From the IMG/VR virus record IMGVR_UViG_2563366840_000001: DNA of 64,000 nucleotides; one strand, given 5' to 3'. The position numbers and the translations under genes were made by a program. Of the stretch, positions 14,370 to 47,458 are shown one piece after another. This stretch comes from a virus (taxonomy: Duplodnaviria; Heunggongvirae; Uroviricota; Caudoviricetes). Every line of letters starts with the position of its first letter. Positions within the stretch are counted from its first letter, which is position 1. The notes beneath the pieces are model-generated. The model was not told where the DNA came from and made no database searches. It saw nothing but the letters and a program-made list of their open reading frames with translations.

Positions 14370-17300
14370 ATGAACAAGCTATCTATGGGTGTGTTTCGCT
14401 GTTCAAGTGTCAGCGAAATATTGAAATACATTAGGGCAATAACATCTCACCGAGCGCCGATTAAATACGGCGTGGAAAAGGTGGAAGGCAAAAGCTATGA
14501 CCGACTGCGCCGGGAGGCGAATCAGAAGGCGATAGATTTGCTTAATTCGCTGGTGGACGGCGCGACACTGACAGATGAACAGCGCCAGATCCTGGCCGGG
14601 TACACTGGTGAAGGCGGCATTGGCGGGTCCGTCTCCGAATATTACACACCAAAGCCTATCGCTGAAGGTGTCTGGGAGATCATGAAGCTCTACGGCGCGG
14701 ACGTAGGTAACACTCTGGAACCATCGGCGGGAACCGGCGTTTTTAATGAGACAAAACCGGTTGGTACGGTGATGACCGCGACTGAGATCAGCAGTGTTTC
14801 CGGTCGTATAAACCAGTTGTTACACCCGGAAGACAGCGTACAGATTTCCCCGTTCGAACAGCTGGCTATAAACACGCCTAACGATTCATTCGACCATGTT
14901 GTGGGTAACGTTCCGTTCGGCGGTCGTGATAACACACGCAACATCGATAAGCCTTACGCAGAAGAAACGGACATGGGGTCTTACTTCATGCTCCGCATGC
15001 TGGACAAGATAAAACCTGGCGGATTCATGTGTGTGATTGTGCCGCCGTCCATTGTTTCAGGTTCAAACATGAAGCGGTTACGCCTGCGCTTATCCCGTAA
15101 AGCTGAATTTCTTGGCGCTCACCGCTTGCCTACCGGTACTTTTGACGCAAACGGGACCAGTACAGTCGTTGATGTGGTGCTGATGCGCAAACATCCGGCA
15201 GAGATGGCTGAGAAAATCCCCCTGGTGGATGAAAGCACTCTTGAATCGGCAAATGTGCTTTGGCCAACGTTTATTTCTGGCAAGTGGTTTGAAAAGGACG
15301 GTCGCCGGTTTGTTCATGGCACCCAGGAAAAGGGCTTCCAGGGGCGTATTGAGGTTCGTGCCGACGGTCAGATTGATAACCAGGCTCTTAAAGCGAAGCT
15401 GATTCATCGTTTCGAAAGCCGTATCGACTGGTCTTTGCTCGATATGGCTGAACCGTCACCGACCGCAGACGTTGTTGGTGAAGGGGAAATGCGCCTGATT
15501 AATGGCGTATGGCAAAAATATGCTGGTGGTCGCTGGATTGAAGCTGATGCCGGGAAGGAACTTAAGATCGATGCTGCCAGTTATGGCGCGGATAGCTGGG
15601 AGGCTCTTCAGCGTAACCTGACTACAACAGAAGGCCGTCTCGGCATGACATTTACCCAGATGGCAAATGTCCGCGATAAGTACACCACATCAATCAGCGA
15701 CGATATGGTGCAGCTGGTGGACTGGATTAACAGCCAGCCTGAAAAATACCGTGAACGCTTGTATCGCGGGGCGATGATTGGCCGGATGTTAATTGAATAT
15801 CAGGACATGAAGGCCGCCGGGCATAGTGCTGAACAAATCGAACAGCAGCGCCTTTCTCTGGTATCCCGTTTGCAGGCAGAGATTGACCGTTTTGGTAACC
15901 CCGGTCGCGGTCCGATAGCGAAATTGTCGGGGAGCGGTGCGCGCGCCTGGTTTGCTTTCCGTGGTGCGATTAAGCTGGATGGCACTATTTCTGACGAGCT
16001 GACAGGAAAGCTGGTTACGCATGATTCCAGCGCCAGTTATGACTCCACCAGCTATCAGGACACCCTGCGTTATCTCTATAGCGATCTTACCCGCGATCCA
16101 ATCCAGCTCGATGATTTCCGCCTTGCGTTTACCGGCGAACTGCCAGCCAGTGATGAAGAGTTGCTTAATTTATTGGCCAGCACCCCTGGTATTGCGGTTT
16201 CACCGTATGGCGGGATTGTTCCGTTCGCCCGCGCCACCAGCGGCGACATTAACGAGATAGTGGCTCCAAAACAGGAATTTCTTGCCACACTCCCCGACGG
16301 TCCAGTAAAGAACAACGTCCTTAATCAGCTGGCAGCGATCGAAGAGAAGCGCATCAAGACGCCAGCAGAGAATATCCGCTTTAAGCTCAATAGCCGTTGG
16401 TTCGACCGCTCCGTCATTCTGGAATTTTTGCAGGAAAACGGCTATCCGGATCTGCGCTATGTGCAGTCAGTGCAGCTGGAAGGCGACGAAATGGTTTCTG
16501 ACACCTATCACGGTGGTGATGGTCTGTTCGTCGGGCACCGATACGGTGTCGTCCAGCGCAAGGATAAAGAAACAGGCGAGATCCGCTACGAGTGGGACCG
16601 TAAATCAGGTGAAAACGCGACCGGGTTCCCGGCACAGCTGGAAAAGTATCTCAATGGTGCGCGTATCGGTGGCAAAGATAGCGCGACGGCGAACGGCTAC
16701 CGCGAGCAGATGGCACTGCTTGAGGACCAGTTCAATAAGTGGATCAAGACGCACGATCGCTACGATGAACTGGTTGCCAAATACAACGATGTGTTCAATA
16801 GCAATATCCCGTATGAACACTCTGGCGATCCGCTTGGGTTGAAGGGATTAAGCGGTAAGCGCCAGCCATTTGATTACCAGAATAGCGAAGTGCGCCGACT
16901 GTCCGAAGATGGGCGCGGCATCCTGGGCTTCGGCACCGGGCTGGGTAAAACTACGACCGCGCTGGTGCTTGAGGCGTTCAACTATGAGAACGGTCGCTCC
17001 ACCCGTACTGCGTATGTAGTGCCTAAATCAGTGCTGGAAAACTGGTATTACGAAGCAAAAGAATTCCTGAGTGAAGAGGCATTCAGTAACTACCTGTTCG
17101 TCGGTCTTGATGTGCTGATGGATGGCGATCAGATTCGCCAGGTGCCGGTGCTCGATGAGAACGGTAAACCTGTTCTTGGTACTGATGGCACTCCAGTTAT
17201 GCGCGATGCCCTAAAACTGGCAGATGAAGCCACTATCACGGCGCGGATGAACGCGATCCCGCACTCAAATTACCGTGCAGTCGTGTTTACCAAAGAACAA

Positions 17301-20300
17301 TACGCCCGCATTCCGCTACGTGATGACACCGTAGATGAGCATGCACAGGATATGCTTTATGACTTCGTTGCCGCCGGGCGCGTAGCCAGCGCAATGGACT
17401 CCGACTCCCACCGCAAAGAGGCCGCGCGTCGCCGGGTATTGTCGGAGTATTCAGATACCGGCACCGAAAAAGCAGAGAAGTATCCGTACTTTGAGGATAT
17501 GGGCTTCGATAGTGTGATCGCTGACGAAGGTCACAACTACCGCAATAGCTATAAAAATGGTCGCGAAGCGTCACAACTGGCCTATCTGCCCACCAGCGCG
17601 GTGGCGCAATCGGCGCGGGATATGGCAATTAAAAACGCGTACCTGATGAAAAAGAATGGTGGGCGCGGACCGGTTCTCCTGACTGCAACGCCAGTCGTTA
17701 ACACCCCGATCGATGCATACAACATGCTTTCTCATGTGCTGCCGAAGGAATACTGGCAGAAGATGGGGATCTACGGTCCTGATGACTTCGTTAAATTCTT
17801 CGGCAAGACCAGGCTGGAAACGGTACAGAAAATCAGCGGTGAAGTTGAAGAAAAAATGGCGCTGGTGGGCTTTGAAAACCTTGATGCGCTGCGCGGCATA
17901 TTCCATCGCTGGACAACGCTTAAAACGGCGGAAGACGTTAAGGATACCGTGGAGATCCCGGAACTGGACGAACACCAGCAGGATGCACCACTTACGGAAG
18001 AACAACTGGCGGCGTATGAAGAATTGCGTCAGCAGGCGGAAGCGGCAGCCAAAGCCAACAATGGCGTAACGACCTCGGTCAATGAAGACGGCGTGATTGA
18101 GCACGAGAAAGCCCGTCCGATCTTCTCAATAATCAGGGATATGGACCGCGTATGTACTGACATGGACCTGTACTATCGCAGGATCACCTATCGTTTCCTG
18201 CCGGAGTACGCCGATGCGGTGCAGCAGCTGGCGGACAGTTTGCCTAAACAAGCCACCAGCGAAGACGACGACAGTGATGATTCGATCACGCAGCAATCGC
18301 AATACTCCCTGATAGATAAGGGCGAGTTTATTCAGTTGCAGGTACCGGAAGCATTTGAGCAGGAAGTGAATAAGCGCCTGGCCAGGTTTGGCATTGACGA
18401 ACAGACCGTAACTCACCCCGTTACGCCCAAATACGCGAAGCTGATTGCCACGCTGAAGGAGTTTTTCCCGGAAGGTAAGCAAATCATCTTCACCGATGAA
18501 AAAACGCAACACCAGAAGCTCAAGCGCATTATCTGCAATGCTCTTAACCTTGAACCTTCAAAGGTGGGGATCCTGAATGCTCAGACGGTTGCCGAGGCAG
18601 GTAAAACCGGTAAGAAACTGAAAGCGGTTAAACCACCGAAAGAGCTACCGGATGAACCAACAGATGCACAGATAGCGAAATACAACGAGCAAATGGCTCT
18701 GTATGACGCCTATATCGCGCAGCAAAATGAAATGTCGCTGGGTGGGCTGGAAAAGATTGCTGCCGACTTCCAGGAGGGCCGGACTCCGATCATCATCTGC
18801 AACAAAAAGGCAGAGGTGGGTATCAACCTGCATCGAGGAACGACTGACATCCATCATCTGACGTTGCCATGGACACCAGCCAGTATCGCACAGCGTAACG
18901 GTCGCGGTGCCCGAGTTGGTTCCAACCGTGCAAGCGTTCGCGTTCACTACTACTGCGGCAAGGGTTCTTTCGATGAATACCGACTGAAGACGCTGAAGCG
19001 TAAAGCAGGCTGGATCTCCGATATCCTCCGCTCAGATAAGTCTGAAATGGAGAACGCCGACGCCAACGATATGATCGAAATGCAGATGTATACCGCTAAG
19101 GATGATGGCGAACGTCTGGCAATGATGCAGGTTCAAATGGATAAGGCGAAAGCCGCGCAACGCGCTCGCCAGAAAGAACAGGCTACTATCGACCTTCAGA
19201 ACTACATCAAGGCGCAGCACGCAGCTGGCGAGGATGTGGAGGTACTTACCGCTGAATTAGAGCGAAGCAAAGCGGAACTTGAAAAGACCACCGCCGAGGT
19301 AGCTAAATTCAAACAGGCGGTAATGGCCAAAGCAGCTGATAACGCAGACTGGAAGGCCCGCTGGGGGAGCGTCCATCACACAGACCGTATGTTGTTAGCA
19401 CAGTATCGCGCGTCGTTGAAAAACGCCATTCAGCGCAAGGCTAATATCTCTCAAGCCATCTCCCGCTATGAGAAATTATTGAACCGTACTCAGAAGGCCG
19501 CGACGGATATCAAACGCCTGCGCCCGCTGGTGGAGGATGCAATAAATAAAGGCATTCTGGATGTTGATCCTGACCTGGTTAACCATGCGAGTGAGTTCCT
19601 TGTTATCGGCGATCGCTCATGGCGTGTAGGCCAATACTACGATTGTGCCGGTGATATCGTTCGCATTAAGTCGCTGGACTTCGACAGCCAGCGCGCAGAC
19701 GTGGAGATCATCTTTACCTTCAAAGGCACCAAATCGGGTAACTGGGATGTGAAGACGCTGGATAAACAGGTGGATGTAACTCCCGATGAAGATGCTGTTA
19801 TGCAGAAAATCAGTGGTGGCGTCTCCATCGCCGGGATTAACGACATCATTTCCTGTGACGATTTCTACCGTTTCCAGCAGCGCGGCATGATCAAAATAAC
19901 TGACTCGTACGGCGTTCAGACTACAGAGTCAGGCTATAGCATTGATTTTGTTGGTACCTATACGGACCCACTGAAGCATGCGGTTTACCCGGATCGCCGT
20001 GACGGCGCGCTGAAGTCGTCAATTGCAAAATGGGTGCTTGGTATGATGTCGGAAGGGAATAACCGCCAGATCCGTTCGGCAGAAACATTCCTGGTTGAAT
20101 TGTTTGGCTCCAATTATGGCGATGTAATCGCGTCATACGGAGATACGCTATCCCCTGAAGCAATTCAGGAGAAAATAGCGGATGCGATCGCCAGAATGCC
20201 GGAAAAAACAAGCCAGGGGGCTACTCGTAACGGGGATTCTGAACTTGAAGTCACCAATGCCATTTTCGGTACCAATGAGTTCCGGGGGTCAGATTATGAG

Positions 20301-21137
20301 ATCACCACAGCACAGTTTGGCACCATTGGCATTTACAGCAATAAAGCCGAGATCAAGCAGGCAATGGACGCAGCAAGCGCGCGCATCGCAGCAGAACGGG
20401 AAGCCAATCTGAATCATGCAGTCGCCGCGCTGACTCAATCGTGGGTAACAGCAATCAGGGAGGCCGCCACCACAGGGAAAATCACACCTGCAATAGCGGA
20501 TGTCGTAAACGACGGCTCTAAATTTATGGATGCCTATCAAATGGATGCGGTGAAGTTGCCATCAGCCTATGGTCAACTCAGCTATCGCATGACCTACAAC
20601 CTGGTATCAATGTTTTCCGACCTTGCCATCCTTGGGCTGGTGGATCTTAACGAGGTTACGCCGGAATTGCTCAGCATGCGCAAGAATCATGTGGAGATAT
20701 TGCAGAGAATTAACACGGTTCTTGCCGGGCGCACCGATGAAGAGAAACAGGCCGACGCTGATCGGATAAACCTAGCCCTTGGCAACATCACGGAGGAAGA
20801 GATTGCCGCCAGAAACGAGAAACAAGAAGAGTTATCATCAATACAGGGTGATGCCACCAGCATAGCTCAGTCTCTTGGTCTGAATTATCGCGTATCCACC
20901 GCCGACCTGAAGATGATGTACGCACCAAAATTCGCCGCTGGCGAGGTATTTGGGCTTCAGGAAGCCTCAGGCATGAAAGGCGTTCTTTTCCGTGCGAAAG
21001 ACGCAATCAAGGCGAAATTCGGCGCTCGCTGGCTGCCAGCGAAGGCGAAGAACAGCGATTTCCCGGGTAACTGGTGGATTATCGAGACAAAACACAACGT
21101 GGCGGACGTTCTGGCCGTCATCCAACAATACGCATAA
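14370..21137 (+). CDS. darB: DarB antirestriction protein (N6-adenine methyltransferase plus helicase domains)
   Basis: 2255 aa; methyltransferase-like motif HVVGNVPFGG, helicase Walker A GFGTGLGKTT and DEGH box; size identical to P1 DarB. Confidence 0.9.
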   Translation: MNKLSMGVFRCSSVSEILKYIRAITSHRAPIKYGVEKVEGKSYDRLRREANQKAIDLLNSLVDGATLTDEQRQILAGYTGEGGIGGSVSEYYTPKPIAEGVWEIMKLYGADVGNTLEPSAGTGVFNETKPVGTVMTATEISSVSGRINQLLHPEDSVQISPFEQLAINTPNDSFDHVVGNVPFGGRDNTRNIDKPYAEETDMGSYFMLRMLDKIKPGGFMCVIVPPSIVSGSNMKRLRLRLSRKAEFLGAHRLPTGTFDANGTSTVVDVVLMRKHPAEMAEKIPLVDESTLESANVLWPTFISGKWFEKDGRRFVHGTQEKGFQGRIEVRADGQIDNQALKAKLIHRFESRIDWSLLDMAEPSPTADVVGEGEMRLINGVWQKYAGGRWIEADAGKELKIDAASYGADSWEALQRNLTTTEGRLGMTFTQMANVRDKYTTSISDDMVQLVDWINSQPEKYRERLYRGAMIGRMLIEYQDMKAAGHSAEQIEQQRLSLVSRLQAEIDRFGNPGRGPIAKLSGSGARAWFAFRGAIKLDGTISDELTGKLVTHDSSASYDSTSYQDTLRYLYSDLTRDPIQLDDFRLAFTGELPASDEELLNLLASTPGIAVSPYGGIVPFARATSGDINEIVAPKQEFLATLPDGPVKNNVLNQLAAIEEKRIKTPAENIRFKLNSRWFDRSVILEFLQENGYPDLRYVQSVQLEGDEMVSDTYHGGDGLFVGHRYGVVQRKDKETGEIRYEWDRKSGENATGFPAQLEKYLNGARIGGKDSATANGYREQMALLEDQFNKWIKTHDRYDELVAKYNDVFNSNIPYEHSGDPLGLKGLSGKRQPFDYQNSEVRRLSEDGRGILGFGTGLGKTTTALVLEAFNYENGRSTRTAYVVPKSVLENWYYEAKEFLSEEAFSNYLFVGLDVLMDGDQIRQVPVLDENGKPVLGTDGTPVMRDALKLADEATITARMNAIPHSNYRAVVFTKEQYARIPLRDDTVDEHAQDMLYDFVAAGRVASAMDSDSHRKEAARRRVLSEYSDTGTEKAEKYPYFEDMGFDSVIADEGHNYRNSYKNGREASQLAYLPTSAVAQSARDMAIKNAYLMKKNGGRGPVLLTATPVVNTPIDAYNMLSHVLPKEYWQKMGIYGPDDFVKFFGKTRLETVQKISGEVEEKMALVGFENLDALRGIFHRWTTLKTAEDVKDTVEIPELDEHQQDAPLTEEQLAAYEELRQQAEAAAKANNGVTTSVNEDGVIEHEKARPIFSIIRDMDRVCTDMDLYYRRITYRFLPEYADAVQQLADSLPKQATSEDDDSDDSITQQSQYSLIDKGEFIQLQVPEAFEQEVNKRLARFGIDEQTVTHPVTPKYAKLIATLKEFFPEGKQIIFTDEKTQHQKLKRIICNALNLEPSKVGILNAQTVAEAGKTGKKLKAVKPPKELPDEPTDAQIAKYNEQMALYDAYIAQQNEMSLGGLEKIAADFQEGRTPIIICNKKAEVGINLHRGTTDIHHLTLPWTPASIAQRNGRGARVGSNRASVRVHYYCGKGSFDEYRLKTLKRKAGWISDILRSDKSEMENADANDMIEMQMYTAKDDGERLAMMQVQMDKAKAAQRARQKEQATIDLQNYIKAQHAAGEDVEVLTAELERSKAELEKTTAEVAKFKQAVMAKAADNADWKARWGSVHHTDRMLLAQYRASLKNAIQRKANISQAISRYEKLLNRTQKAATDIKRLRPLVEDAINKGILDVDPDLVNHASEFLVIGDRSWRVGQYYDCAGDIVRIKSLDFDSQRADVEIIFTFKGTKSGNWDVKTLDKQVDVTPDEDAVMQKISGGVSIAGINDIISCDDFYRFQQRGMIKITDSYGVQTTESGYSIDFVGTYTDPLKHAVYPDRRDGALKSSIAKWVLGMMSEGNNRQIRSAETFLVELFGSNYGDVIASYGDTLSPEAIQEKIADAIARMPEKTSQGATRNGDSELEVTNAIFGTNEFRGSDYEITTAQFGTIGIYSNKAEIKQAMDAASARIAAEREANLNHAVAALTQSWVTAIREAATTGKITPAIADVVNDGSKFMDAYQMDAVKLPSAYGQLSYRMTYNLVSMFSDLAILGLVDLNEVTPELLSMRKNHVEILQRINTVLAGRTDEEKQADADRINLALGNITEEEIAARNEKQEELSSIQGDATSIAQSLGLNYRVSTADLKMMYAPKFAAGEVFGLQEASGMKGVLFRAKDAIKAKFGARWLPAKAKNSDFPGNWWIIETKHNVADVLAVIQQYA

Positions 21138-21170
21138 CAGGAGCGCCCGGTTCGCCGGGCGTCGCATAAT

Positions 21171-21611
21171 ATGGCCACACTATCTGATACAATAAAACCG
21201 AATAAAACATATCTTGAGGCGGTACTCCGTACAGCGTTGTTAGGAAAGACAGAAGACGAATACGTTGATTTCTTCCTGTCAGGGCTACGCGGGCGATTAC
21301 TGAAAAATCCCCGCCTGTACCGCAGCTATGGTCCATACTGGCCGGAAATTAAAAAATTATTACTGGAGCGCGGTTATGGTAATTTCGGTCGTCTCGTTGA
21401 CCGTGACGTTCGCAAAATTTACCGTTATGACCGCCCGGCGCTGACGCTCATAGCCGCGACGCTCTACAGCCAGGAGCGTTTTGATAATGGTCAGATATAC
21501 TCAGCCTGGCATTTACTGCCAGTACCTGAAGAGGTTGACGACCAGGACTATGAGTTTGAGTCTTACGATTTGGAAGTTGAAGCCTTAGCACAGGCTGGAG
21601 AGAAAACTTGA
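21171..21611 (+). CDS. ulx: Ulx
   Basis: 146-aa ORF between darB and lxc, as in P1. Confidence 0.65.
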   Translation: MATLSDTIKPNKTYLEAVLRTALLGKTEDEYVDFFLSGLRGRLLKNPRLYRSYGPYWPEIKKLLLERGYGNFGRLVDRDVRKIYRYDRPALTLIAATLYSQERFDNGQIYSAWHLLPVPEEVDDQDYEFESYDLEVEALAQAGEKT

Positions 21612-21856
21612 AAAAGCGATACTACACAGTAAAGCATGGGACGCTACGAGCATTACAAGAGTTTGCTGATAAGCATAACGTTGAGGTGCGCAGGGAGGGG
21701 GGAAGTAAAGCTCTGCGCATGTACCGTCCGGACGGGAAATGGCGTACGGTCGTCGATTTCAAAACTAACAGCGTTCCCCAGGGCGTCCGCGATCGGGCAT
21801 TCGAAGAATGGGAGCAGATCATCATAGATAATGCATTGCTTCTCAATGCGGATTAA
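21608..21856 (+). CDS. lxc: Lxc/Bof, C1 co-repressor
   Basis: 82-aa ORF, size and position of P1 Lxc (Bof). Confidence 0.7.
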   Translation: MKKRYYTVKHGTLRALQEFADKHNVEVRREGGSKALRMYRPDGKWRTVVDFKTNSVPQGVRDRAFEEWEQIIIDNALLLNAD

Positions 21857-22015
21857 ACTTCCCCAAATAATGGCTGTTTGCTCGCCGAGCATCGCTCAAA
21901 GAAACACGATTATTCAAACATATAGATAGTGATAGTGCCCTCGTATAAGTGTGACAACTTCTGGCTCTAGTGGGCTGGGGAGGCGGCGCTTTGTTGCTAA
22001 ATGATCTGGTTTAAA

Positions 22016-23956
22016 ATGGATATGAAAAAAGAAACGATTTTTTCCGAAGTAGAAACGGCTAACAGCAAGCAACTGGCTGTGTTGAAAGCTAATTTCCCTC
22101 AGTGTTTTGATAAAAACGGAGCCTTCATTCAAGAAAAATTGCTTGAGATTATTAGGGCATCGGAAGTTGAACTCTCTAAAGAATCATACAGCTTGAACTG
22201 GCTGGGTAAATCTTATGCCCGTTTGTTGGCCAATCTACCACCGAAAACGTTGTTGGCAGAAGATAAAACTCATAACCAACAAGAAGAGAACAAGAACAGT
22301 CAACACCTGTTAATCAAAGGGGATAATCTCGAAGTATTGAAGCATATGGTTAATGCTTACGCTGAAAAGGTGAAGATGATTTACATTGACCCACCATACA
22401 ATACAGGTAAGGATGGGTTCGTTTATAATGATGATCGCAAATTTACACCTGAGCAGCTTTCTGAACTAGCAGGCATCGACCTCGATGAGGCTAAACGCAT
22501 ATTAGAATTTACCACCAAGGGGTCAAGCAGTCATAGTGCATGGCTGACATTCATTTACCCACGCCTTTATATTGCTCGTGAATTAATGAGAGAAGACGGG
22601 ACTATTTTTATTTCTATTGACCATAATGAGTTCAGTCAATTAAAACTAGTTTGCGACGAGATCTTTGGTGAGCAAAACCATGTTGGGGATCTAGTATGGA
22701 AAAATGCAACTGATAACAACCCTTCAAATATCGCTGTAGAGCATGAATATATTATTGTTTACACAAAAAACAAAGAGCAGCTTATAAGTGAGTGGAAATC
22801 TAATATCTCCGATGTAAAAAACTTACTTGTCAACATAGGTGAAGAATTTGCATCAAAATACACTGGCAATGAACTTCAGGAAAAATATACCCAGTGGTTT
22901 CGTGAACACAGATCTGAATTATGGCCTCTTGACCGATACAAATATATAGACAAAGACGGCATCTATACTGGTAGTCAGAGCGTCCACAACCCCGGAAAAG
23001 AGGGTTACAGATATGATATTATACATCCAAAAACTAAGAAGCCATGCAAACAACCTCTTATGGGGTATCGTTTTCCATTAGATACAATGGATAGGCTTCT
23101 GTCTGAAGAAAAGATCATCTTCGGTGATGATGAAAACAAAATTATAGAACTAAAAGTTTATGCTAAGGATTACAAACAGAAATTAAGCTCCGTTATCCAT
23201 CTTGATGGGCGTGTTGCAACGAACGAACTTAAAGAGCTGTTCCCAGAAATGACTCAACCATTCACAAATGCTAAAACTATAAAATTAGTAGAAGATTTAA
23301 TATCTTTTGCATGTGATGGAGAGGGTATTGTTTTGGATTTTTTTGCTGGGTCAGGAACTACAGCGCATACAGTTTTTAATTTGAATAACAAAAATAAAAC
23401 GTCGTATCAGTTTATTACAGTTCAACTAGATGAACCTACAAAAGATAAATCTGATGCCATGAAGCATGGCTATAATACAATATTTGACTTAACAAAGGAG
23501 CGTTTAATTAGGGCGTCTAAAAAAAATAGGGATCAGGGGTTTAAGGTATATCAACTAATGCCAGATTTTCGCGCTAAAGACGAATCAGAACTTACACTGT
23601 CTAATCATACATTCTTTGATGATGTTGTCTTGACGCCTGAACAATATGACACTCTATTAACTACATGGTGCCTGTATGATGGCAGTTTGCTAACAACACC
23701 TATTGAAGATGTTGATCTTGGTGGCTACAAAGCACATTTGTGCGATGGTCGTCTGTATTTGATTGCACCTAATTTTACTAGCGAAGCATTGAAAGCGTTA
23801 CTTCAAAAGGTGGATTCAGACAAAGACTTTGCTCCAAACAAAGTCGTGTTTTATGGCAGCAACTTTGAAAGCGCAAAGCAAATGGAACTCAATGAAGCAC
23901 TAAAAAGTTATGCTAATAAAAAATCTATTGAGTTAGATTTGGTGGTGAGGAACTAA
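22016..23956 (+). CDS. mod: Type III restriction-modification methyltransferase (Mod), EcoP1I-like
   Basis: N6-adenine MTase motifs DPPY and FFAGSGTT; start uncertain between ATG 22016 and 22022 (track 22001); AT-rich coding sequence. Confidence 0.93.
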   Translation: MDMKKETIFSEVETANSKQLAVLKANFPQCFDKNGAFIQEKLLEIIRASEVELSKESYSLNWLGKSYARLLANLPPKTLLAEDKTHNQQEENKNSQHLLIKGDNLEVLKHMVNAYAEKVKMIYIDPPYNTGKDGFVYNDDRKFTPEQLSELAGIDLDEAKRILEFTTKGSSSHSAWLTFIYPRLYIARELMREDGTIFISIDHNEFSQLKLVCDEIFGEQNHVGDLVWKNATDNNPSNIAVEHEYIIVYTKNKEQLISEWKSNISDVKNLLVNIGEEFASKYTGNELQEKYTQWFREHRSELWPLDRYKYIDKDGIYTGSQSVHNPGKEGYRYDIIHPKTKKPCKQPLMGYRFPLDTMDRLLSEEKIIFGDDENKIIELKVYAKDYKQKLSSVIHLDGRVATNELKELFPEMTQPFTNAKTIKLVEDLISFACDGEGIVLDFFAGSGTTAHTVFNLNNKNKTSYQFITVQLDEPTKDKSDAMKHGYNTIFDLTKERLIRASKKNRDQGFKVYQLMPDFRAKDESELTLSNHTFFDDVVLTPEQYDTLLTTWCLYDGSLLTTPIEDVDLGGYKAHLCDGRLYLIAPNFTSEALKALLQKVDSDKDFAPNKVVFYGSNFESAKQMELNEALKSYANKKSIELDLVVRN

Positions 23957-23958
23957 TC

Positions 23959-26871: not shown

Positions 26872-26882
26872 TGCTAGTTTAA

Positions 26883-26906
26883 AAGGAGGTGAAAACCTCC
26901 TTTTTT
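26883..26906 (+). terminator. Rho-independent terminator after res
   Basis: AAGGAGGT-gaaa-ACCTCCTT stem followed by TTTTTT. Confidence 0.8.
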
Positions 26907-26945
26907 GACATCCTACACGACCTGAAAGAAGTGGCGTTTAGGCCG

Positions 26946-27587: not shown

Positions 27588-27776
27588 AGCGCCCCCTACA
27601 AAAAAGAAAAGCCACCAGCGGCGGCTTAGCAATACAACTGAAGGTAGCGCCCGGTACTCAGACTGTGCCGTCCATGGAATATTTGAAAAGGGATCCATCC
27701 GTACCGGGCGTGTGATGATTCTGACTGAAGTCACTTGTCAGTTGTCAATCATTTATCATTAAAAATAATATATTTA

Positions 27777-28337: not shown

Positions 28338-28436
28338 ATGGTCAAAAAAAAGGCGGCCTAATGGCCGCCTATGATGTCAAGGAGTGAAGTAATGGCAACG
28401 TCTTCGTAGTTGGCAAAAACTGCGACTCAATTATAG

Positions 28437-28453
28437 CAACCAATTAGAGCAAT
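28437..28453. promoter_or_regulatory. C1 operator-like site upstream of ref
   Basis: Contains the TTAGAGCAAT core of the C1 operator. Confidence 0.45.
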
Positions 28454-28584
28454 TAAAGTTGTTTATTTATCGCGAATCACATTTTTTCACTTCAGTACCT
28501 GTGTGCTATACTCCTTCTTGATTGATTGGATGCGGAATACAAACCCGCTCTTTTGTGCAGCCTGGATCCTTGCCAGGCTTTTTT

Positions 28585-28896: not shown

Positions 28897-28912
28897 ATGT
28901 CACCATAAATAT

Positions 28913-28929: not shown

Positions 28930-28946
28930 CATTTACGCGTTAATGG

Positions 28947-35190: not shown

Positions 35191-36383
35191 TAATCATCAT
35201 CCCCGTATAGCTTGCGGGTAACTTCTTCGTCTTCCTCCTCGTCTTCGTCCAGGTCTTGTTCCAGCCATGGGTCGTTTGATACACCTTCAGTATCAACATC
35301 TCCATAACCGCCTGTATCAACGATATCGGCGATTTCTTCCCTACGCTGCTCAATCCACAATGCGGCATCGGCGCGGCGGTTGGCGGCCCGTTCTCGCGCA
35401 ACTTTGTCCAGATCTTCAAGAGAAGGGCCACCGACGGCTGTTTGCCTTTCCTCATCATCGGTATTGGTCTTAGGAGCACGCAGATCGGCTTTGATTTGCT
35501 CCAGCATCAGGGGCGGAACTTTCCCACCATGCGCCTCGATGAATTCAGCTGCTTCCAGCACTGACCAGTTATTTTCACGCTTTCGTTCGTATGCCAGCTT
35601 AACAATGCCAGCTTGCCCCATAGACAAAGCGTGCTTTTCCGCCTCCCGGCTTTCTTTTCGATAGTTATTCCGGATGCTGTAAATGGTGTTGATCAGACTG
35701 CTTATCTGCGCGGAACAGCTGTTTAGCATGCTCGCGATACGGTATTCAGGCGGAGTACCTCCATCATCGTCTTTTTGCTGATCGCGCATTTCCTGCACCA
35801 GGCGAATACACGTATCCCTGGCGTTCTCCAGCATAAGGAGATGAGAAAGAGACTTTTCAAGAAGAGTGGTTTCCAGAACATCGGCCCCGGACCGACGCAA
35901 CATAGCGCGCGCGGCCTTCCGCGCTTCAACGTTATCTATCAGGTAATCGCCAGCTTCGAATTCAAAGCGTTCACCATCATCATCCAGGGTGTCGCGTTCC
36001 AGACGATCACGTAAGGTCCGGTGGGCGCGGGTGATCACGTCATGATCATCTGAACGATCATTTATGCGCTTATTTTGGCGCTTCGCATTCTCGACTGCGG
36101 CACTGACAACGGCATTAACTCTCTGTTTTTCCGCTATTTCAGCCGCAATATGATCACCTGCATGTTGATCATTAGAGTGATCAATGATCATGCCTTTTAG
36201 TGGCTTCCTGACTGGCTTATTTGGCTTGCGGCTGTCCGCAGTCCTGGTGTCTTCTTTGAAGGCACGGAGATAACGACGTGCGGTATTAGGGTTAAGATTA
36301 AACTCGGCGGCATACTGTGCGATGGTGTAACCACCATCTCGCGCCAGGCGAGCAAAATTCTTCTTGTGATCGTCCCAGGTCAC
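35190..36383 (-). CDS. pacA: Terminase small subunit PacA
   Basis: 397 aa with acidic C-terminus; contains the pac hexamer cluster in its 5 prime third. Confidence 0.9.
36030..36190. other. pac packaging site (TGATCA/G hexamer clusters)
   Basis: Three to four TGATCA-type hexamers at 36004-36061 and four at 36151-36190 flanking a roughly 90-bp spacer, each containing a GATC Dam site. Confidence 0.85.
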
Positions 36384-37009: not shown

Positions 37010-38053
37010 TCATCTAACGCTCGACGAATGACTTGTGATAGCGCCGACTCCAAGCGCGTAATCAAAGAACAATCGTTGATGCATCGCCAGCCTACCGTGC
37101 GTCTTCTCCCAATTATCGCGGTCACGCTCAATATCACGCTGGCATGACTGGCACAGAGGAATAGCATAAATGTCATGCGCGCATAATCGACTATGACGAA
37201 CGATATAAGGCGTAATGTGAGCGCCAGCTCCCGCAGCTCCACAGCCACAGCATGGACGGGAAGCCACAAAATCCATGTACTCGGGCAATTTTAGCGATTG
37301 AAGTTTTGGTATTTTGAAATGCGCCATGCTAGGGTCGGAGTCAACATCCACAGGGCATACTTTTGCACGCATCGGCGCGGCGCGTTCTTCCATCATCTGA
37401 ACATATGCTGTAGCGCGATCGTCATACGGGCGAATATCCGCCTCTTTCAGAGGTCCACTATCCTGCGGAGTAGCCTTCATCTTATTTATTGATATGCGGC
37501 AGACTTCTTCCGGCATCAGGTGCATCATGTTGCGCATGAAAGCCCACCAGCACAGCTCCTGAATACTTAAATCATGGCTATTTGAAAGGCCCATTTCCTG
37601 ACGGGCGACATCCAGTATCCAGTTAACGCGATTATTGTGCAGCGTTTCTTTCAGCTCATTAAAACCACGCATCCGGTAATGGTTATCGTGATGCCAGCAC
37701 AACAACACCGCGCTATTGTCTCGTTCAGCGTGGACAATATGGTTGTCACACCAACTACGATCTGCGGCCTGGCATTGACCCTCTTTCCTACGCAACCACG
37801 CAACCAGCGCGTCAATTCCACCAATACGGCGAAACAGTTCATCGCTGTTAAAAAACGGCTGCAACGCCTCATTTGTTGCCATGGTTTGCTCGGTAACAAC
37901 GAGGCCGTCTTCCATGTGCTCGATTAACTCACGCGGCACCGGCTCCATAATAAATTTACGGCCAGCCTCCACCAGCTTTCTGACCTCCTGATCCACTTTG
38001 AACGTGGCGAGGCCAAGCTCTTTCTGTACAAAGGGAGTAATTACGGCTTTCAC
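37010..38053 (-). CDS. pdcB: PdcB
   Basis: 347-aa Cys-rich ORF downstream of doc, as in P1. Confidence 0.7.
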
Positions 38054-38866: not shown

Positions 38867-38872
38867 AAACAC

Positions 38873-38938: not shown

Positions 38939-39328
38939 TTAAATCACCGGACAATCATCAAACTCCCCACTTCGGGCATCATTGATGACATGAGTGATCA
39001 CACCAAAAACAGCATTACTGCCCGTGCATCCATCGTCATCTACTGGTAACGCCTCTTTCTTCCCGGTGCTTAAATCCTCCAGGTGCTGGCGCGGATACTT
39101 CCTGTATCTCTTTATGCGATATTCACCCTCCATAGCGCACACAAGCAGAGAACCATCAACCGGAGTAAGCGAGGAATCAACCACCAGCAAAGCACCCTGC
39201 AATATTCCCTCACGGTGATGGCTATCAGCTGCCCGCATGAAGTAGGTTGCTGATGGATGCCTGATTAGTTGCTGATCAAGAGAAATTCGGCTTTCAACAT
39301 AATCCGCCGCAGGAGAAGGGAAGCCCAT
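38939..39328 (-). CDS. humD: HumD, UmuD-like S24 peptidase
   Basis: 129-aa UmuD-prime-like protein; LexA box in its promoter region. Confidence 0.9.
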   Translation of the reverse strand: MGFPSPAADYVESRISLDQQLIRHPSATYFMRAADSHHREGILQGALLVVDSSLTPVDGSLLVCAMEGEYRIKRYRKYPRQHLEDLSTGKKEALPVDDDGCTGSNAVFGVITHVINDARSGEFDDCPVI

Positions 39329-41463: not shown

Positions 41464-41519
41464 AATCTCCTTGATGTGGAAACAATCATTTTCTGTATGT
41501 GCTGGTGGGCACCTGTAGT

Positions 41520-41882
41520 TCAGCTTTCGTTGGCATTTAACTTCGTCTTTGCTTTCTCCACCAGCAACTTCCAGATGCCTATTTCATTAGCAGCCGCCTT
41601 GATGGCGGCATAAAAAGCATCTTGCTGATCGTAACGCTGGATCTGTTTTTTCAGTTTTGCCTCCACCAATTTAATTTCATTACGTGCTTTCTGAAGCCGC
41701 ATCACCGCCCGGTTACGTCTGTTCTTGTATAGCGTGTTAATCTCTGACAATTGCTTTAATTTACCAGCCTGACTGCGGATTATCGCCTCCCTGGCTTCTG
41801 CCGTGCGTCTCATCTTATCTCTTAAGAGTTCACCGTTTTCGATAATTCTTTCAAGGTGTTTGATGTGATCTGCAACTCTCAT
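41520..41882 (-). CDS. Hypothetical coiled-coil protein
   Basis: 120-aa ORF, last gene of the minus-strand operon. Confidence 0.6.
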   Translation of the reverse strand: MRVADHIKHLERIIENGELLRDKMRRTAEAREAIIRSQAGKLKQLSEINTLYKNRRNRAVMRLQKARNEIKLVEAKLKKQIQRYDQQDAFYAAIKAAANEIGIWKLLVEKAKTKLNANES

Positions 41883-42760
41883 ACTTCACCCTCGCTTGTA
41901 TCACCAGCGTCCACCAACGACAATAAAGCCCTAGCCATCTTATGAACCAACAGTGCATCAATAATGCCAAGCGTATGCCCCGGCTTAATGTTTAATGCTG
42001 CCTCAAGATGACACCTTTCCAGACCGCTTTTCTCGGCTTGTTTATGATGATATGGCGTAATAACGTCGCCCAAAACACGGCTAATTCTTTCTCGTAATTG
42101 CTGGGTGCCAGCACACTTGATCGCTGTATCGTGGAGACGGTTAACCAGTTCGCGATAAACATGCGGCTTAATGCGGATACGTTCACCGGTGACGCCCTTT
42201 CCTGGCGCAGGCACCGAACTATCCGGAATATCCGGATAGTTGCCAGCCAGTCTACGCAAAACAGCCTTAATTGCATCAATACGGTCATCATCAACTTTTT
42301 CTACAATATTGGAATTTAAATACTTCGAAGCCTTGCTATGCCAATCGCTGGTTTTAGGGTCTTGTCCATCCATCAAACGCCAAGCTTCAGCGATTAACTC
42401 ATAGCCAGTAACAGTGGCTTCCTGCGCATCACCAATCAGTTGTGTGATCTCTCTTTCAAGCATGCTTAGAGCGTTAGGCATTGGTTTTTCTTCCGGTACT
42501 ACTGGAACGGGGGGAGCGGCGTAGACCTCAATAATTCCATTATCAATAGGCCATTCTCCATCCTTGAGGTAGTCACTTGTGCCGTCAACTTGCTGTTCTG
42601 CAATGTGGAATGCACCTATTGGTTTTGCGTCCAGCGATGCCAGAGCAATTCGTGCCAGTTCTTCCGCTTCTTCTGCTGGCAGTACAACGTTGCTACCAGG
42701 TCCGTATGTTTCGCGCCACTGCTTGATTGTCAGTAGTCGCTCTTTGGTAATAGTGGTCAT
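41879..42760 (-). CDS. Hypothetical protein
   Basis: 293-aa ORF, overlapping neighbours by 4 bp. Confidence 0.65.
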   Translation of the reverse strand: MTTITKERLLTIKQWRETYGPGSNVVLPAEEAEELARIALASLDAKPIGAFHIAEQQVDGTSDYLKDGEWPIDNGIIEVYAAPPVPVVPEEKPMPNALSMLEREITQLIGDAQEATVTGYELIAEAWRLMDGQDPKTSDWHSKASKYLNSNIVEKVDDDRIDAIKAVLRRLAGNYPDIPDSSVPAPGKGVTGERIRIKPHVYRELVNRLHDTAIKCAGTQQLRERISRVLGDVITPYHHKQAEKSGLERCHLEAALNIKPGHTLGIIDALLVHKMARALLSLVDAGDTSEGEV

Positions 42761-43272
42761 GCCGCGTTTCCTTCTTTCTTATTAACAATTACACCGTCAT
42801 ATATTTCATTAAGGTGCCCTCTCAACTCCATGCGCCTTAATGCAGATAACATGTAATCGCATTCAACCTGCTTATTTCCAGTAAATGGCTTATCGTCAGG
42901 ATTACCCCAACAGCAATTACCCTTGGGCCACCCATGTACTTTCCGTACTCTTCCGTTAACAACGTGAAGTAATCCCCAGCCAGGTGGTAAATCCTCAATT
43001 GAAATAATTCCCGGCTCACTAATAAAGAATCGCCAGTCGCCCATTCCAAGAGACGGATTTTTACGAAAACGCTTTTTTCTATCTGCCAACAAGTCAGCAC
43101 GAGAACACTTCGCCTCTATCAGGCATGATGCTGAATTTCTGAATCCCATAGCATCTGGCTGTTCTCCGGTACTGGTTACAGCTATAAAGCGGTCATGAAA
43201 ACAAACCTTGAACCCGTTGCGCTTAAGGAACTTGTACGCAATCTGACAGAGTTCGCGGTGTGTTAACGCCAT
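42757..43272 (-). CDS. Putative PD-(D/E)xK-type nuclease
   Basis: 171 aa with D...EAK arrangement (DAMGF...IEAKCS). Confidence 0.5.
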   Translation of the reverse strand: MALTHRELCQIAYKFLKRNGFKVCFHDRFIAVTSTGEQPDAMGFRNSASCLIEAKCSRADLLADRKKRFRKNPSLGMGDWRFFISEPGIISIEDLPPGWGLLHVVNGRVRKVHGWPKGNCCWGNPDDKPFTGNKQVECDYMLSALRRMELRGHLNEIYDGVIVNKKEGNAA

Positions 43273-43273
43273 A

Positions 43274-43963
43274 TCACTCTCCTTTGATGCGAATGCCAGC
43301 GTCAGACATCATATGCAGATACTCAACTGCATCCTGAACCCATTGACCGCCAATCCCGTAATAGCGATGCGTAATGATGTCGATAGTTACTAACGCGTCT
43401 TGTTCGATTAACTTCCGCAGAAACTCTTCCAGGTCACCAGTGCAGTGCTTGATGACAGGAGTTTTCCCAGGATGGCGAACAACAAGAAACTGATTTCCGA
43501 CTTCACGGACTTCGTTGCTTTCCAGTTCTGCTATGCGCTTACTTCCATCCGCGATTACTCCCTCGTAATATTCACGCTGCTCGTTGAGTTTTGATTTTGC
43601 TGTTTCAAGCTCAACGCGCAGCTTCCCTACCGTTAGCGCAATATCCTCGTTCTCCTGGTCGCGGCGTTTGATGTATTGCTGGTTTCTTTCCCGTTCATCC
43701 AGTAGTGCCAGCACGGTAGCTGGACTGGCTGCTGCGATGAATTCAGCATTGGCCTGCTGTTCCATTTGGAAATCTTCATCGAAACCGCTTTCTGGATGCG
43801 CTCCTTCAATTCTGCAAATGGGAATATATCCAGCAACTTCACGATGAATTAGCGCATCATCACCATCAAATCGGCTCTCTCCATATTCGAGCGACCATAC
43901 ACCACACGTTGCTTTTTCTGCCTTTTCACGCAGTGCCTGATAGTCAATTTTCATACTCGCCAT
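43274..43963 (-). CDS. Ea22-like coiled-coil protein
   Basis: N-terminus IDYQALREKAEKATCGVW typical of the lambdoid Ea22/ead family. Confidence 0.55.
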   Translation of the reverse strand: MASMKIDYQALREKAEKATCGVWSLEYGESRFDGDDALIHREVAGYIPICRIEGAHPESGFDEDFQMEQQANAEFIAAASPATVLALLDERERNQQYIKRRDQENEDIALTVGKLRVELETAKSKLNEQREYYEGVIADGSKRIAELESNEVREVGNQFLVVRHPGKTPVIKHCTGDLEEFLRKLIEQDALVTIDIITHRYYGIGGQWVQDAVEYLHMMSDAGIRIKGE

Positions 43964-44595
43964 CCTTCACAGTTGTAATCACGACATCCTTCAAAATCAT
44001 ATGGGCTGTACTGCCAGGTAATTTTTCCGCAATGCGGACAATTCCAGCGCACCTTACCGCTTCGCGACTTTTTTCTTCTGTTTTGTTTTTTCAACCAGTC
44101 AGGTATGACCAAACCTGCGCCCTGAACCATTGTTCTGCGGTTAAAATTATTGATATTGAACGTCCGGCGCTTTGCTACATCGGCAATGGAAAATGGCAAC
44201 CAAACTATTCCTGGCTCGTTTTTGTTAGCGACGCTAAAGATGGTTGCTTTACTGAAGTCATCTGTTGGCAATCCACCGTGTTGAAGCCAGTAAACATCGT
44301 TGCCGTTCCAGCTACCTTTTTTGTAGGCCACATACGCAGTGCAATCTGACTCAATCAGGCTTTCTGTGGGGATGTACTGGCAATCAACGTGCCACAGAGC
44401 CATTGCATCCACGCTATCAGCGCAAACAGGCTGATCGATATCTCGTCCACAATTCCAGGCTTTTTGGGCTTCTTCCAGCGTGTAAACATGAGCGCGATCG
44501 ATATCAGAACTGTAACCATTGCCGTTATGGCAATGGAATGAGGCGTTATTACCCACAGTTTCACGCAAGCACATCATGTAAAAGCGGTTATTCAC
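43951..44595 (-). CDS. Hypothetical Cys-rich protein with C-terminal zinc-ribbon
   Basis: 214 aa; CPHCGK...C..C motif. Confidence 0.6.
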   Translation of the reverse strand: MNNRFYMMCLRETVGNNASFHCHNGNGYSSDIDRAHVYTLEEAQKAWNCGRDIDQPVCADSVDAMALWHVDCQYIPTESLIESDCTAYVAYKKGSWNGNDVYWLQHGGLPTDDFSKATIFSVANKNEPGIVWLPFSIADVAKRRTFNINNFNRRTMVQGAGLVIPDWLKKQNRRKKSRSGKVRWNCPHCGKITWQYSPYDFEGCRDYNCEGWRV

Positions 44596-44872
44596 TGGTT
44601 GCCTCCGCTTCCCACGTTTTCAGACTTTCACCACAGAACGGGCAAAATGAAACTCGAATAGGCGATTTAGAAAATTCACCAGACCGCAGCATGATCAGGT
44701 CTTGTGAATGAATTAATTCATGGTTATAGATTTTGTATTTCAGCAGACCTTTTCGCGTCGTGTATTCAGCGTCATGCTCCAGGGATTGTGCCAACGCCGC
44801 GCACGGTTCTATCTTGTTGCCATTAATTTGGCATTTTGACTCACTCACTGGTTGCCCCCTGAATACGCTCAA
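44588..44872 (-). CDS. Small zinc-ribbon protein
   Basis: 94 aa with CxxC...CPFCG. Confidence 0.55.
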   Translation of the reverse strand: MSVFRGQPVSESKCQINGNKIEPCAALAQSLEHDAEYTTRKGLLKYKIYNHELIHSQDLIMLRSGEFSKSPIRVSFCPFCGESLKTWEAEATSE

Positions 44873-45422
44873 ACTCTATTACCCACACCCAAGGATTAGC
44901 GTTCCAACTATCTTCGCCATAAATTGATTTCCATAGGCTAGGGAAACCTGGGTAATGCTTATCGCCAATGAGGGTCGATTCTGTTGGTGCGCCCTCAGCC
45001 CTTGCATCGCATTCGCTGATATCGTTCAACCGCTCAACGCGAACGTTGGTAATTTCCAGAAGAATGCGCGATGCCCAGCGCGGCATGTGAATTGATGGCG
45101 TCCACTTTTCTGATACTGGTTTATTACAAACCTCGACCGGAACCCGGTGCGTTTGTTCTGTCCAGGAGTTACGCACGCTTGCGCGATAAACCAGCGTTGC
45201 GACGTCCGTCGCTTTGCCATGTACCCGGTAGGTTTCGCGAACCCAAATACGATCGCCCGGTTGACCATATGGACAATGCTTGGCAAGCAACTCTGCGGCC
45301 ACTGCCCGTCCATAGAATTTTTCTTCAACAATCCTGCGAGTCTGTGTTTTATTCCCGCCAAGAATTGCCCGGACCATCTCATCGTTAAAAATCATGCCGC
45401 GCTCTTTCACTTCGCCTTTCAT
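44841..45422 (-). CDS. Hypothetical protein, ASCH-like N-terminal region
   Basis: 193 aa; GGNKTQTRR...IWVRETY segment resembles the ASCH fold signature (uncertain). Confidence 0.55.
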   Translation of the reverse strand: MKGEVKERGMIFNDEMVRAILGGNKTQTRRIVEEKFYGRAVAAELLAKHCPYGQPGDRIWVRETYRVHGKATDVATLVYRASVRNSWTEQTHRVPVEVCNKPVSEKWTPSIHMPRWASRILLEITNVRVERLNDISECDARAEGAPTESTLIGDKHYPGFPSLWKSIYGEDSWNANPWVWVIEFERIQGATSE

Positions 45423-46123: not shown

Positions 46124-46195
46124 ATGCCCTCCTCATTGGACGAAAAAAATGCTGGTGGGCGCACTCCACCAGCATTAAAAGTGACACTGTAACTG

Positions 46196-47458
46196 TCAGC
46201 GAACGTAAATAGTGCCGCCGTTCTCTTTTTCCCATGCATCGCTACGTGCATAGCAAACATCGAGAAGTCTTCTTGCCGCTGTTTCCTCTAAACCCAATTC
46301 GACAACCAACTGCTCATGACGGCGGGTAACCACATCAAACAGGGTATGCAGCCCTTTAGCTGCCAGATCATCAATAAATTCCGGTTCGAACGGCAGCTCT
46401 GCCTCTGCCAACATAACCTCTTGCGCCCACTCAACTCGACGGACCAGTTCCGGGCGGCGGCTTTCCATCTCTTTACAGATCAATTCATGGAAGAACTCTA
46501 CCCAACCTTCCGGCTGGAACTCGCGGAAAATGGCCAACGGCTGGAAGTTTGGCATCAACCATTCGTTGATCCGGATATCAATGGCATAGCCCATGTCGCA
46601 GCAGAACTGATAAGCAAAGTCCAGCTTAGAAACGATATAAGGACGCTCGTTATTGAACTCTTTAGGCGATGAGATCCCATAAGCCAGGAGGCGCGGGAAG
46701 AAGGAGATTTGCCCTAACGTCGGATGAAGTTTGCTTGCAGGGAAACGGCGCTCAGTAATGCCATACATTTCCTTCTTGAGCGTCGCAAATTTGGCATTCT
46801 CATTAACCAGCGCGGTAACCTCTGCTTTTTTATTAGCAAATGCCACGCGCGCCTCGCTTGCATCTTTAATAGTTTTTTTGAGCTGTTGGTTAAGGTCGGC
46901 AACCTGCTTACGCAGTTCCTGTCGCTCGCTTTTAGCTTTGTTATAGCGTTTCTCAAGGTTAAAAGGATCAAGTTTCATGATCTCTTTATATTGAGATTTT
47001 AGCGTTGAAATCTGTGAGTTCCGCAGTTCAACCATCGCGGTCATTTCATTGAGTTTTGTTTCCAGCTCAATGCTTATACGTTCGGCATTATCAGCACGCT
47101 GGTTGGCGTCATGCGTCGCATCGTCGATCGCGTCCTGTTGCTGGCGTTTCAAATGTTCAATTTCCAGCTGAAGCTCTTCAATTTCTTTACCCTTCAGACC
47201 GAGATCCAACTGCATATTTTCAGCTGCATCTACCAGGGAGTTATGGCTATCAGCTTCTGCGTTATAAACATCAATAAGCTGTGCGTGAAGCATCTCCGCT
47301 GACTGAACCGCATTATCAAAAAAACGCGCTGTGAGGTCATCACAACTAACGCGGCGTTGCGCGGCCCGGATGTTCTGGATAATGGCCGGGATACCGGCAT
47401 TCAGGACGTCAGGGATAGATACATTTTCGATTGATTGGTTTTGTGCTGAAGTGCTCAT
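46196..47458 (-). CDS. Hypothetical protein with N-terminal coiled coil
   Basis: 420-aa ORF; about 230 aa of heptad-rich sequence then a globular C-terminal domain. Confidence 0.65.
   Translation of the reverse strand: MSTSAQNQSIENVSIPDVLNAGIPAIIQNIRAAQRRVSCDDLTARFFDNAVQSAEMLHAQLIDVYNAEADSHNSLVDAAENMQLDLGLKGKEIEELQLEIEHLKRQQQDAIDDATHDANQRADNAERISIELETKLNEMTAMVELRNSQISTLKSQYKEIMKLDPFNLEKRYNKAKSERQELRKQVADLNQQLKKTIKDASEARVAFANKKAEVTALVNENAKFATLKKEMYGITERRFPASKLHPTLGQISFFPRLLAYGISSPKEFNNERPYIVSKLDFAYQFCCDMGYAIDIRINEWLMPNFQPLAIFREFQPEGWVEFFHELICKEMESRRPELVRRVEWAQEVMLAEAELPFEPEFIDDLAAKGLHTLFDVVTRRHEQLVVELGLEETAARRLLDVCYARSDAWEKENGGTIYVR

Follow-up and report, generated by a model that had tools for sequence, protein, structure and literature searches.

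The window analysed here, a 64 kb stretch of the virus record IMGVR_UViG_2563366840_000001, belongs to a P1-like phage-plasmid (Punavirus) and carries 46 exact copies of the octamer GCTGGTGG, known as Chi, which is the sequence used by the RecBCD enzyme of E. coli and Salmonella. The sequence statistics, read together with the P1 literature, suggest that these octamers are genuine RecBCD Chi sites, held at high density by selection for circularising headful-packaged DNA, a reading to which we would give a probability of roughly 0.8. P1 is said to have been described as Chi-rich by Lobocka et al. in 2004. Chi density, its rank as the top octamer, clustering around the packaging site pac, a link to coding that is looser than in E. 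coli, and the circularisation model itself have all been published for P1, P7, D6 and NGUA22 (Subramaniam & Smith, bioRxiv 10.1101/2021.07.08.451572; Genome Res 2025, PMC12315714). The Chi density of P1-like phages being already known, we bring confirmation and small extensions: three further Chi-rich lineages (JK004, Citrobacter and Pantoea), a codon-preserving test, the turnover of sites at a kept density, Chi-free islands as insertion markers and, more tentatively, an orientation bias upstream of pac.

The 46 copies (18 on the + strand and 28 on the − strand) amount to one Chi per 1.4 kb, about 28 times the chance expectation: 100 dinucleotide-preserving shuffles of the window gave 1.62 ± 1.25 copies, with a maximum of 7. 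Markov models predict 1.6 (order 0), 5.5 (order 3) and 15.3 (order 5) copies; the expectations of order 5–6 (15–33) were set aside in favour of codon-preserving shuffles because the Chi copies themselves inflate them. No other octamer of the window is as frequent as Chi: the next ones reach 20 copies and overlap Chi by seven bases. The 24 one-mismatch variants of Chi are scarce (mean 3.0 copies, maximum 8), which ties the excess to the exact octamer; the flanking bases vary from site to site. The original prediction of a high Chi density between positions 14370 and 47000 is borne out, as this interval holds 31 copies (14 on the + strand and 17 on the − strand; one per 1.05 kb) and as the counts on the two strands of the window stand against a composition-based expectation of only 1.6. 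The span was drawn too narrowly, however: the Chi-rich stretch runs from 4281 to 56711, with zero Chi in the flanks 1–4280 and 56719–64000. Among the positions that had been given as examples, five were right within one base (15522, 17861, 27612, 41501 and 46151), whereas those placed at 28151 and 34321 actually lie at 28159 and 34301.

Selection acts on Chi at synonymous sites, as shown by tests using a gene map built from P1 protein homology. When synonymous codons were shuffled within genes, keeping the proteins and the codon usage of each gene (n = 1000), 9.5 ± 2.3 Chi were obtained (maximum 18), compared with the 46 observed, and codon-order shuffles lead to an expectation of 5.4. Synonymous choice permits Chi at 90 positions in the window proteins and Chi is present at 43 of them (48%), meaning that selection on an eight-base signal outweighs codon choice at about half of the positions open to it. 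All six frames are represented, as is non-coding DNA: xxG-CTG-GTG-Gxx accounts for the most sites (15 of the 43 genic ones), 12 sites are antisense to [S/P/T/A]-Thr-Ser, five are read as Trp-Trp and three are non-coding. CTG makes up 34% of the Leu codons of the window genes and GTG 25% of the Val codons. Chi is carried by 15 of the 43 L-V-[GAVDE] tripeptides and by 12 of the 26 [SPTA]-T-S tripeptides, compared with roughly one each expected from a hand estimate based on codon frequencies.

The P1 lineage that had been proposed for this DNA is confirmed by an identity of about 96–98% at the DNA level to P1, P7, SJ46 and vB_EcoM-813R1; the elements nearest to the window derive from E. coli and Salmonella. 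P1 orthologues were found for 62 window genes (mean amino-acid identity 95.5%), and the window contains the pacAB headful-packaging genes and loxP–cre. Its orientation is inverted with respect to the P1 reference (AF234172), and the alignment and the packaging landmarks are as follows.

Window 778–14000: aligns with P1 31836–17606
Window 14000–30414: aligns with P1 17606–1
Window 30414–60240: aligns with P1 94800–71259
36099–36108, − strand: pac cleavage site, inside pacA between TGATCA hexamer clusters; aligned to the annotated P1 90804–90813
33706–36383, − strand: pacB and pacA terminase genes, with 89% (pacB) and 96% (pacA) amino-acid identity to P1; pacA occupies 35190–36383
30397–30430, − strand: loxP, an exact 34 bp match, 5.7 kb downstream of pac

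Since pac lies at 36099–36108 on the − strand, packaging should head from about 36100 towards lower window coordinates. The window thus spans −28 to +36 kb of pac and does not reach the genes for plasmid replication and partition.

Chi is clustered around pac. In complete P1 (AF234172) we counted 50 Chi, 31 of them on the top strand, in agreement with the published figures and with the Chi enrichment of P1 that the original prediction had cited (bioRxiv 10.1101/2021.07.08.451572; PMC12315714); the sites are not annotated in the P1 GenBank record. Of these 50 copies, 44 fall between −20 and +40 kb of pac. Permitted positions are occupied in 39 of 75 cases (52%) at −20 to +32 kb of pac, compared with 6 of 42 (14%) elsewhere (Fisher 6e-5), for an equal G+C content in the two regions (0.476 versus 0.469). 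Chi is sparse over the other 40 kb or so of P1, and this part of the P1-like genome lies mostly outside the window. On the downstream side of pac neither orientation prevails (18:14 in the window; 117:99 when the five lineages P1, JK004, D6, Citrobacter and Pantoea are taken together).

Comparison with P1 indicates that 41 of the 46 window Chi stand at the same homologous position, three being found only in the window and two in an insert, while about four P1 Chi have been lost in the window through single changes. Chi octamers are kept in 41 of 45 cases, for about 36 expected from neighbouring octamers (p ~0.02). Chi is also the top octamer of four more distant elements.

Phage D6: 53 Chi in 91 kb
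Cronobacter phage JK004: 103 Chi in 94 kb
Citrobacter portucalensis plasmid NZ_CP099368: 77 Chi in 84 kb
Pantoea agglomerans plasmid NZ_CP134741: 97 Chi in 94 kb

In all four, Chi leads the next octamer about two-fold, and the JK004, Citrobacter and Pantoea elements are denser in Chi than P1 (about one per 0.9–1.1 kb). The orthologous genes of JK004 (74% amino-acid identity) have 20 of 35 Chi positions in common with the window; the orthologues in D6, Citrobacter and Pantoea (41–47% identity) have only 7, 4 and 5 in common, respectively, out of the 28–37 Chi that they carry. The density is kept while the sites turn over, which implies continuing selection and not inheritance alone, and indicates ongoing selection for Chi density across distant P1-like relatives. 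Moreover, given the high density in the Cronobacter, Citrobacter and Pantoea elements, GCTGGTGG is probably also the working Chi of RecBCD in these hosts. The top-octamer test on P1-like plasmids could reveal the Chi sequence of a host, and P1-like backbone DNA can be reliably recognised by its very high Chi count.

What such a density could serve is suggested by the biology of P1. Starting from pac, P1 fills about four headfuls in succession, with terminal repeats of 5–10 kb; it has no known encoded RecBCD inhibitor and needs host RecA and RecBCD for growth, including the Chi-recognising residues of RecC (bioRxiv 10.1101/2021.07.08.451572; PMC12315714). Its growth is about 20-fold lower, with loss of plaques, in recA null, recBC null and Chi-blind recC hosts (bioRxiv 10.1101/2021.07.08.451572). 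The role proposed for the density and clustering of P1 Chi is RecBCD–RecA recombination between the terminal repeats, which circularises the injected DNA (bioRxiv 10.1101/2021.07.08.451572; PMC12315714). Applied to the window, headful packaging from pac would make the DNA of each virion linear, with 5–10 kb terminal repeats, and the ends of the four or so headfuls would land up to about 40 kb downstream of pac (from window position 36100 down towards 1). After injection, RecBCD would enter both ends and, on meeting a correctly oriented Chi, would cease degrading the 3′-ended strand and load RecA; the RecA filament would then pair with the repeat at the opposite end to give a circular genome, the form that plasmid lysogeny and lytic replication would both require. 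As the ends are scattered, as both are attacked and as RecBCD recognises Chi only part of the time, many Chi in both orientations would be needed. The balanced orientation downstream of pac fits this model, for the same reason that both ends would be attacked and that the ends would be scattered. P1-like Chi would then be a clear case of a virus recruiting a host repair enzyme instead of blocking it.

We looked for a phage-borne RecBCD inhibitor or recombinase. No Gam, Red-beta, RecT or Erf family was detected in a Pfam scan of the 20 non-P1 accessory open reading frames (ORFs) of the window, and none of the P1-homologous window genes is annotated as a RecBCD inhibitor or a general recombinase; this holds within the limits of the window, beyond which lie about 30 kb of genome and the remainder of a Mu-like insert. 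Mu encodes a Gam protein that protects DNA ends.

Upstream of pac, the orientation of Chi is not balanced. Within 20 kb, Chi facing the unpackaged pac end outnumber the others by 9:3 in the window; over the five lineages the ratio reaches 48:11 in the first 10 kb and 74:22 in the full 20 kb, the Chi positions being largely independent among these lineages. Compared with the 117:99 measured downstream, the 48:11 bias is significant in a Cochran–Mantel–Haenszel test stratified by gene strand (p = 4e-4), and one-mismatch control words in the same DNA give 51:39, to be compared with 48:11 for Chi (Fisher 0.002). A simple binomial orientation test was dropped because gene strand and GC skew confound it; the stratified test and the test on near-Chi control words were used instead. 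Subramaniam & Smith call the orientation of P1 Chi ‘nearly random’, whereas the bias found here concerns the 10–20 kb upstream of pac. Chi located there (window 36100–56700) would halt a RecBCD entering the unpackaged pac end; the halted end would become a recombining end and the concatemer would be spared. It is thus conceivable, at somewhat less than even odds in our analysis, that P1-like phages possess two Chi arrays: a bidirectional one downstream of pac for circularisation, and an oriented one upstream preserving the concatemer and perhaps seeding recombination-dependent replication. The proposed upstream array would resemble the cos-oriented Chi of lambdoid phages that lack a Rec module.

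Several points weigh against this account as a whole or against its upstream part. The RecBCD dependence of P1, the biochemistry of Chi and headful packaging come from the literature, and the action of RecBCD at the sites of the window, like their function as Chi, is inferred from sequence statistics and from these papers. First-headful genomes can circularise by Cre–loxP recombination without Chi, so the requirement covers only part of the virions. Purines at +4 to +7 on the 3′ side of Chi raise its activity in vitro (Taylor et al. 2016, PMC5041463), yet they are not enriched in the window, in P1 or at 380 sites from five genomes. The upstream bias is a post hoc observation that tracks GC skew and gene strand in part, and it becomes marginal when set against Markov models of order 2/3 (p 0.03–0.09). 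Finally, the place of pac and the direction of packaging in JK004, D6, Citrobacter and Pantoea were assumed from pacA homology.

The original prediction went on to propose that Chi may protect linear DNA from RecBCD. The link with RecBCD was right, but the proposal is incomplete, as P1 needs RecBCD and the published role is circularisation, of which nuclease attenuation is one component and not the purpose. In a pure form of shielding, Chi would only switch off the RecBCD nuclease and thereby let linear P1 DNA survive, whether as injected genomes, rolling-circle tails or restriction fragments, recombination being unnecessary. That Chi attenuates degradation by RecBCD is established biochemistry, most Chi upstream of pac point towards the exposed pac end, and no Gam-type inhibitor was seen among the 20 accessory ORFs scanned. 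However, if RecBCD were only a threat, its removal should benefit the phage, which is the opposite of the 20-fold decrease and the loss of plaques in the recA, recBC null and Chi-blind recC hosts (bioRxiv 10.1101/2021.07.08.451572); shielding also leaves unexplained why Chi is concentrated in the terminal-repeat zone and sparse in the other 40 kb of P1. We consider it unlikely as a complete explanation, although protection in this narrow sense may, tentatively, apply to the Chi upstream of pac. Less probable still, by about half, is another selected function, with Chi being either a ‘self’ mark of the plasmid prophage, which would yield few RecBCD fragments for CRISPR spacers or other defence, or a binding site for a phage protein. 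A self mark would suit the long-term plasmid life of these elements, the presence of the trait in every P1-like phage-plasmid examined and the report, in one paper, that DNA 5′ of Chi enters CRISPR arrays less often. It predicts an even spread, though, and not a clustering around pac with some 40 kb of P1 sparse in Chi, and Subramaniam & Smith argue against Chi as a self-marker (bioRxiv 10.1101/2021.07.08.451572). Against a protein-binding site, the selected unit is exactly the RecBCD octamer, with variable flanks and no sign of a longer motif.

The least probable explanation dispenses with selection on Chi altogether and makes it a by-product of host codon or oligonucleotide usage (CTG-GTG dicodons and G-rich strands) or of common descent. 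E. coli is itself Chi-rich, CTG-GTG is the leading frame in the window (15 of 43 genic sites), and common descent with P1 accounts for 41 of the 46 sites. Nevertheless, shuffles that keep proteins and codon usage yield 9.5 copies and not 46, CTG and GTG account for merely 34% and 25% of the Leu and Val codons, Chi is also present in five other frames and in non-coding DNA, and one-mismatch words show no enrichment. In addition, the density of the window is about three times that of E. coli, the occupancy of permitted positions differs four-fold between P1 regions of equal G+C content, and distant relatives keep the density at different positions. The by-product explanation is refuted for practical purposes, and selection for circularisation by RecBCD and RecA remains the reading that we favour.

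All of the window sites are exact matches to GCTGGTGG and are listed below with their strand and gene context; each is common to P1 at the homologous position unless otherwise stated.

4281–4288, − strand: darA, antisense; P1 has CCACCAAC instead
5102–5109, − strand: ddrB, antisense
6697–6704, − strand: ddrB, antisense
9925–9932, − strand: ORF 9187–10032, sense, R-W-W
10147–10154, + strand: ssb, antisense
12158–12165, + strand: pro, antisense
12213–12220, − strand: pro, sense
14081–14088, − strand: portal gene prt, sense, G-L-V-D
14549–14556, + strand: darB, sense
15522–15529, + strand: darB, sense
15713–15720, + strand: darB, sense
16045–16052, − strand: darB, antisense
16234–16241, − strand: darB, antisense
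17590–17597, − strand: darB, antisense
17861–17868, + strand: darB, sense
18253–18260, − strand: darB, antisense
19526–19533, + strand: darB, sense
20636–20643, + strand: darB, sense
20854–20861, − strand: darB, antisense
26626–26633, + strand: res, sense, near the 3′ end; sole Chi of the low-GC mod–res block
27401–27408, − strand: mat, sense
27612–27619, − strand: mat, sense, R-W-W
27932–27939, + strand: ref, antisense
28159–28166, + strand: ref, antisense
29038–29045, − strand: cre, sense
29217–29224, + strand: cre, antisense
30515–30522, − strand: non-coding control region in the loxP–imcA interval; P1 position 94692
32363–32370, + strand: extra ant1-like gene, antisense; without a P1 counterpart here
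32813–32820, − strand: extra ant1-like gene, sense; without a P1 counterpart
34301–34308, − strand: pacB, sense
34864–34871, + strand: pacB, antisense; P1 has GCTAACAG instead
35145–35152, − strand: pacB, sense; P1 has CCACAAGC instead
37544–37551, − strand: pdcB, sense; upstream of pac, facing the pac cut; P1 position 89361
37969–37976, − strand: pdcB, sense; upstream of pac, facing the pac cut; P1 position 88936
39181–39188, − strand: humD, sense; upstream of pac, facing the pac cut; P1 position 87724
41501–41508, + strand: intergenic, pmgV–upfM
41558–41565, − strand: pmgV, sense
46148–46176, − strand: Chi pair in a terminator hairpin, 46151–46158 (+) and 46166–46173 (−); P1 83737/83752
49592–49599, − strand: pmgQ remnant adjoining an insertion sequence, sense, G-W-W
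50091–50098, − strand: ppp, sense
53460–53481: inverted Chi pair inside gene 25, 53460–53467 (+) and 53474–53481 (−), with a 6 nt spacer; kept in P1 and in Cronobacter phage JK004
53601–53608, − strand: gene 25, antisense
56239–56246, − strand: gene 6, antisense
56711–56718, + strand: gene 6, sense

The hairpin at 46148–46176 stands directly after pmgS and consists of an 11 bp stem with one Chi per arm, followed by 7 U (−18.1 kcal/mol, z −4.3), which is the textbook form of an intrinsic terminator. From its sequence, each inverted pair is a compact Chi that would be readable from both directions. Matching inverted pairs are present in two other stretches, L002 (27742–27763 and 33737–33759) and L003 (JK004; 37427–37448).

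The DNA without P1 homology, 11.4 kb in all, contains 1 Chi, whereas the rate of the backbone would give 9.8 (P = 6e-4). Four islands are free of Chi, namely one end of a Mu-like prophage, an IS3-family insertion sequence (IS), an Ead/Ea22 module and a diverged mod gene, and such islands within a P1-like genome are a marker of recent insertions. The Mu-like transposable prophage end occupies 60240–64000, just upstream of P1 ban, with Mor, GemA/gp16, DUF2786/DUF7168 and DUF3164 genes on the − strand, and starts with TGATTAGACTTGAG at 60240. The chromosome of E. coli AW1.7 (NZ_CP073624) has a copy with 100% identity, the same end of which interrupts a decarboxylase gene; no Chi is present in the window part of the element or in 10.8 kb of the AW1.7 copy. 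The junction of the Mu-like end with ban was found in 0 of 494 P1-like plasmids in PLSDB, and a full-length insert would probably push the P1 genome beyond headful size. The IS (48080–49382; orfA 49004–49330 and orfB 48117–49007, − strand) splits pmgQ, is not in P1 and has zero Chi. A 3 kb module at 42249–45330 is likewise missing from P1 and free of Chi; it replaces most of pmgT with four or five ORFs, one of them Ead/Ea22-like.

The type III restriction–modification genes at 21900–26900 have a G+C content of 0.35–0.37, and zero Chi is found in the 4.7 kb of the low-GC mod–res block at 21900–26600. Res has 92% amino-acid identity to P1 Res, and the middle of mod (22630–23563) has no P1 DNA homology, so that the target recognised may well differ from that of P1. 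Between c1 and pacB, where P1 has nothing, a second antirepressor module of icd/ant1 type lies at 32016–33346; its amino-acid identity is 80% to P1 Icd and 56% to P1 Ant1, and it has two Chi of its own. The ORF at 9187–10032 (− strand, isaA region) codes for 281 amino acids with a Tad2-like domain (Thoeris anti-defence 2; Pfam E = 2e-22) at the C terminus, and no P1 protein matched it by the criteria used. Finally, P1 homology begins only at about 778, past a cin-like invertase gene at 65–646 that has 74% amino-acid identity to P1 Cin and lies on the strand opposite to the P1 layout, suggesting a different or inverted tail-fibre inversion module.

The window and P1 (together with P7, D6 and NGUA22) are alike in having Chi as the top octamer, on both strands and clustered around pac and lox. 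They differ in that the window has five Chi that P1 lacks and misses about four P1 Chi, and in that only the window carries the Mu-like end, the IS3-family IS, the extra icd/ant module and the Ead/Ea22 module, inserts that are nearly free of Chi. The E. coli chromosome has the same octamer and the same enzyme, with a Chi density of about one per 4.6 kb. The density of P1 has been given as ‘more than twice’ that of E. coli, where Chi ranks 21st among octamers by frequency, falls mostly in the CTG-GTG frame of the coding strand and is evenly spread (bioRxiv 10.1101/2021.07.08.451572); in the window, by contrast, no octamer is commoner than Chi, which occurs once per 1.4 kb, in every frame and with a clustered distribution. 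Phages that package from cos and have no recombinase of their own are likewise Chi-rich, and host RecBCD–Chi recombination has been proposed as their means of making packageable DNA. These phages orient Chi relative to the packaging site, which resembles the bias seen here upstream of pac. They are, however, unrelated to P1 and have unique ends, with nearly all Chi on one strand near the right end, whereas headful packaging in P1-like phages scatters the ends across tens of kilobases, and both Chi orientations are present downstream of pac.

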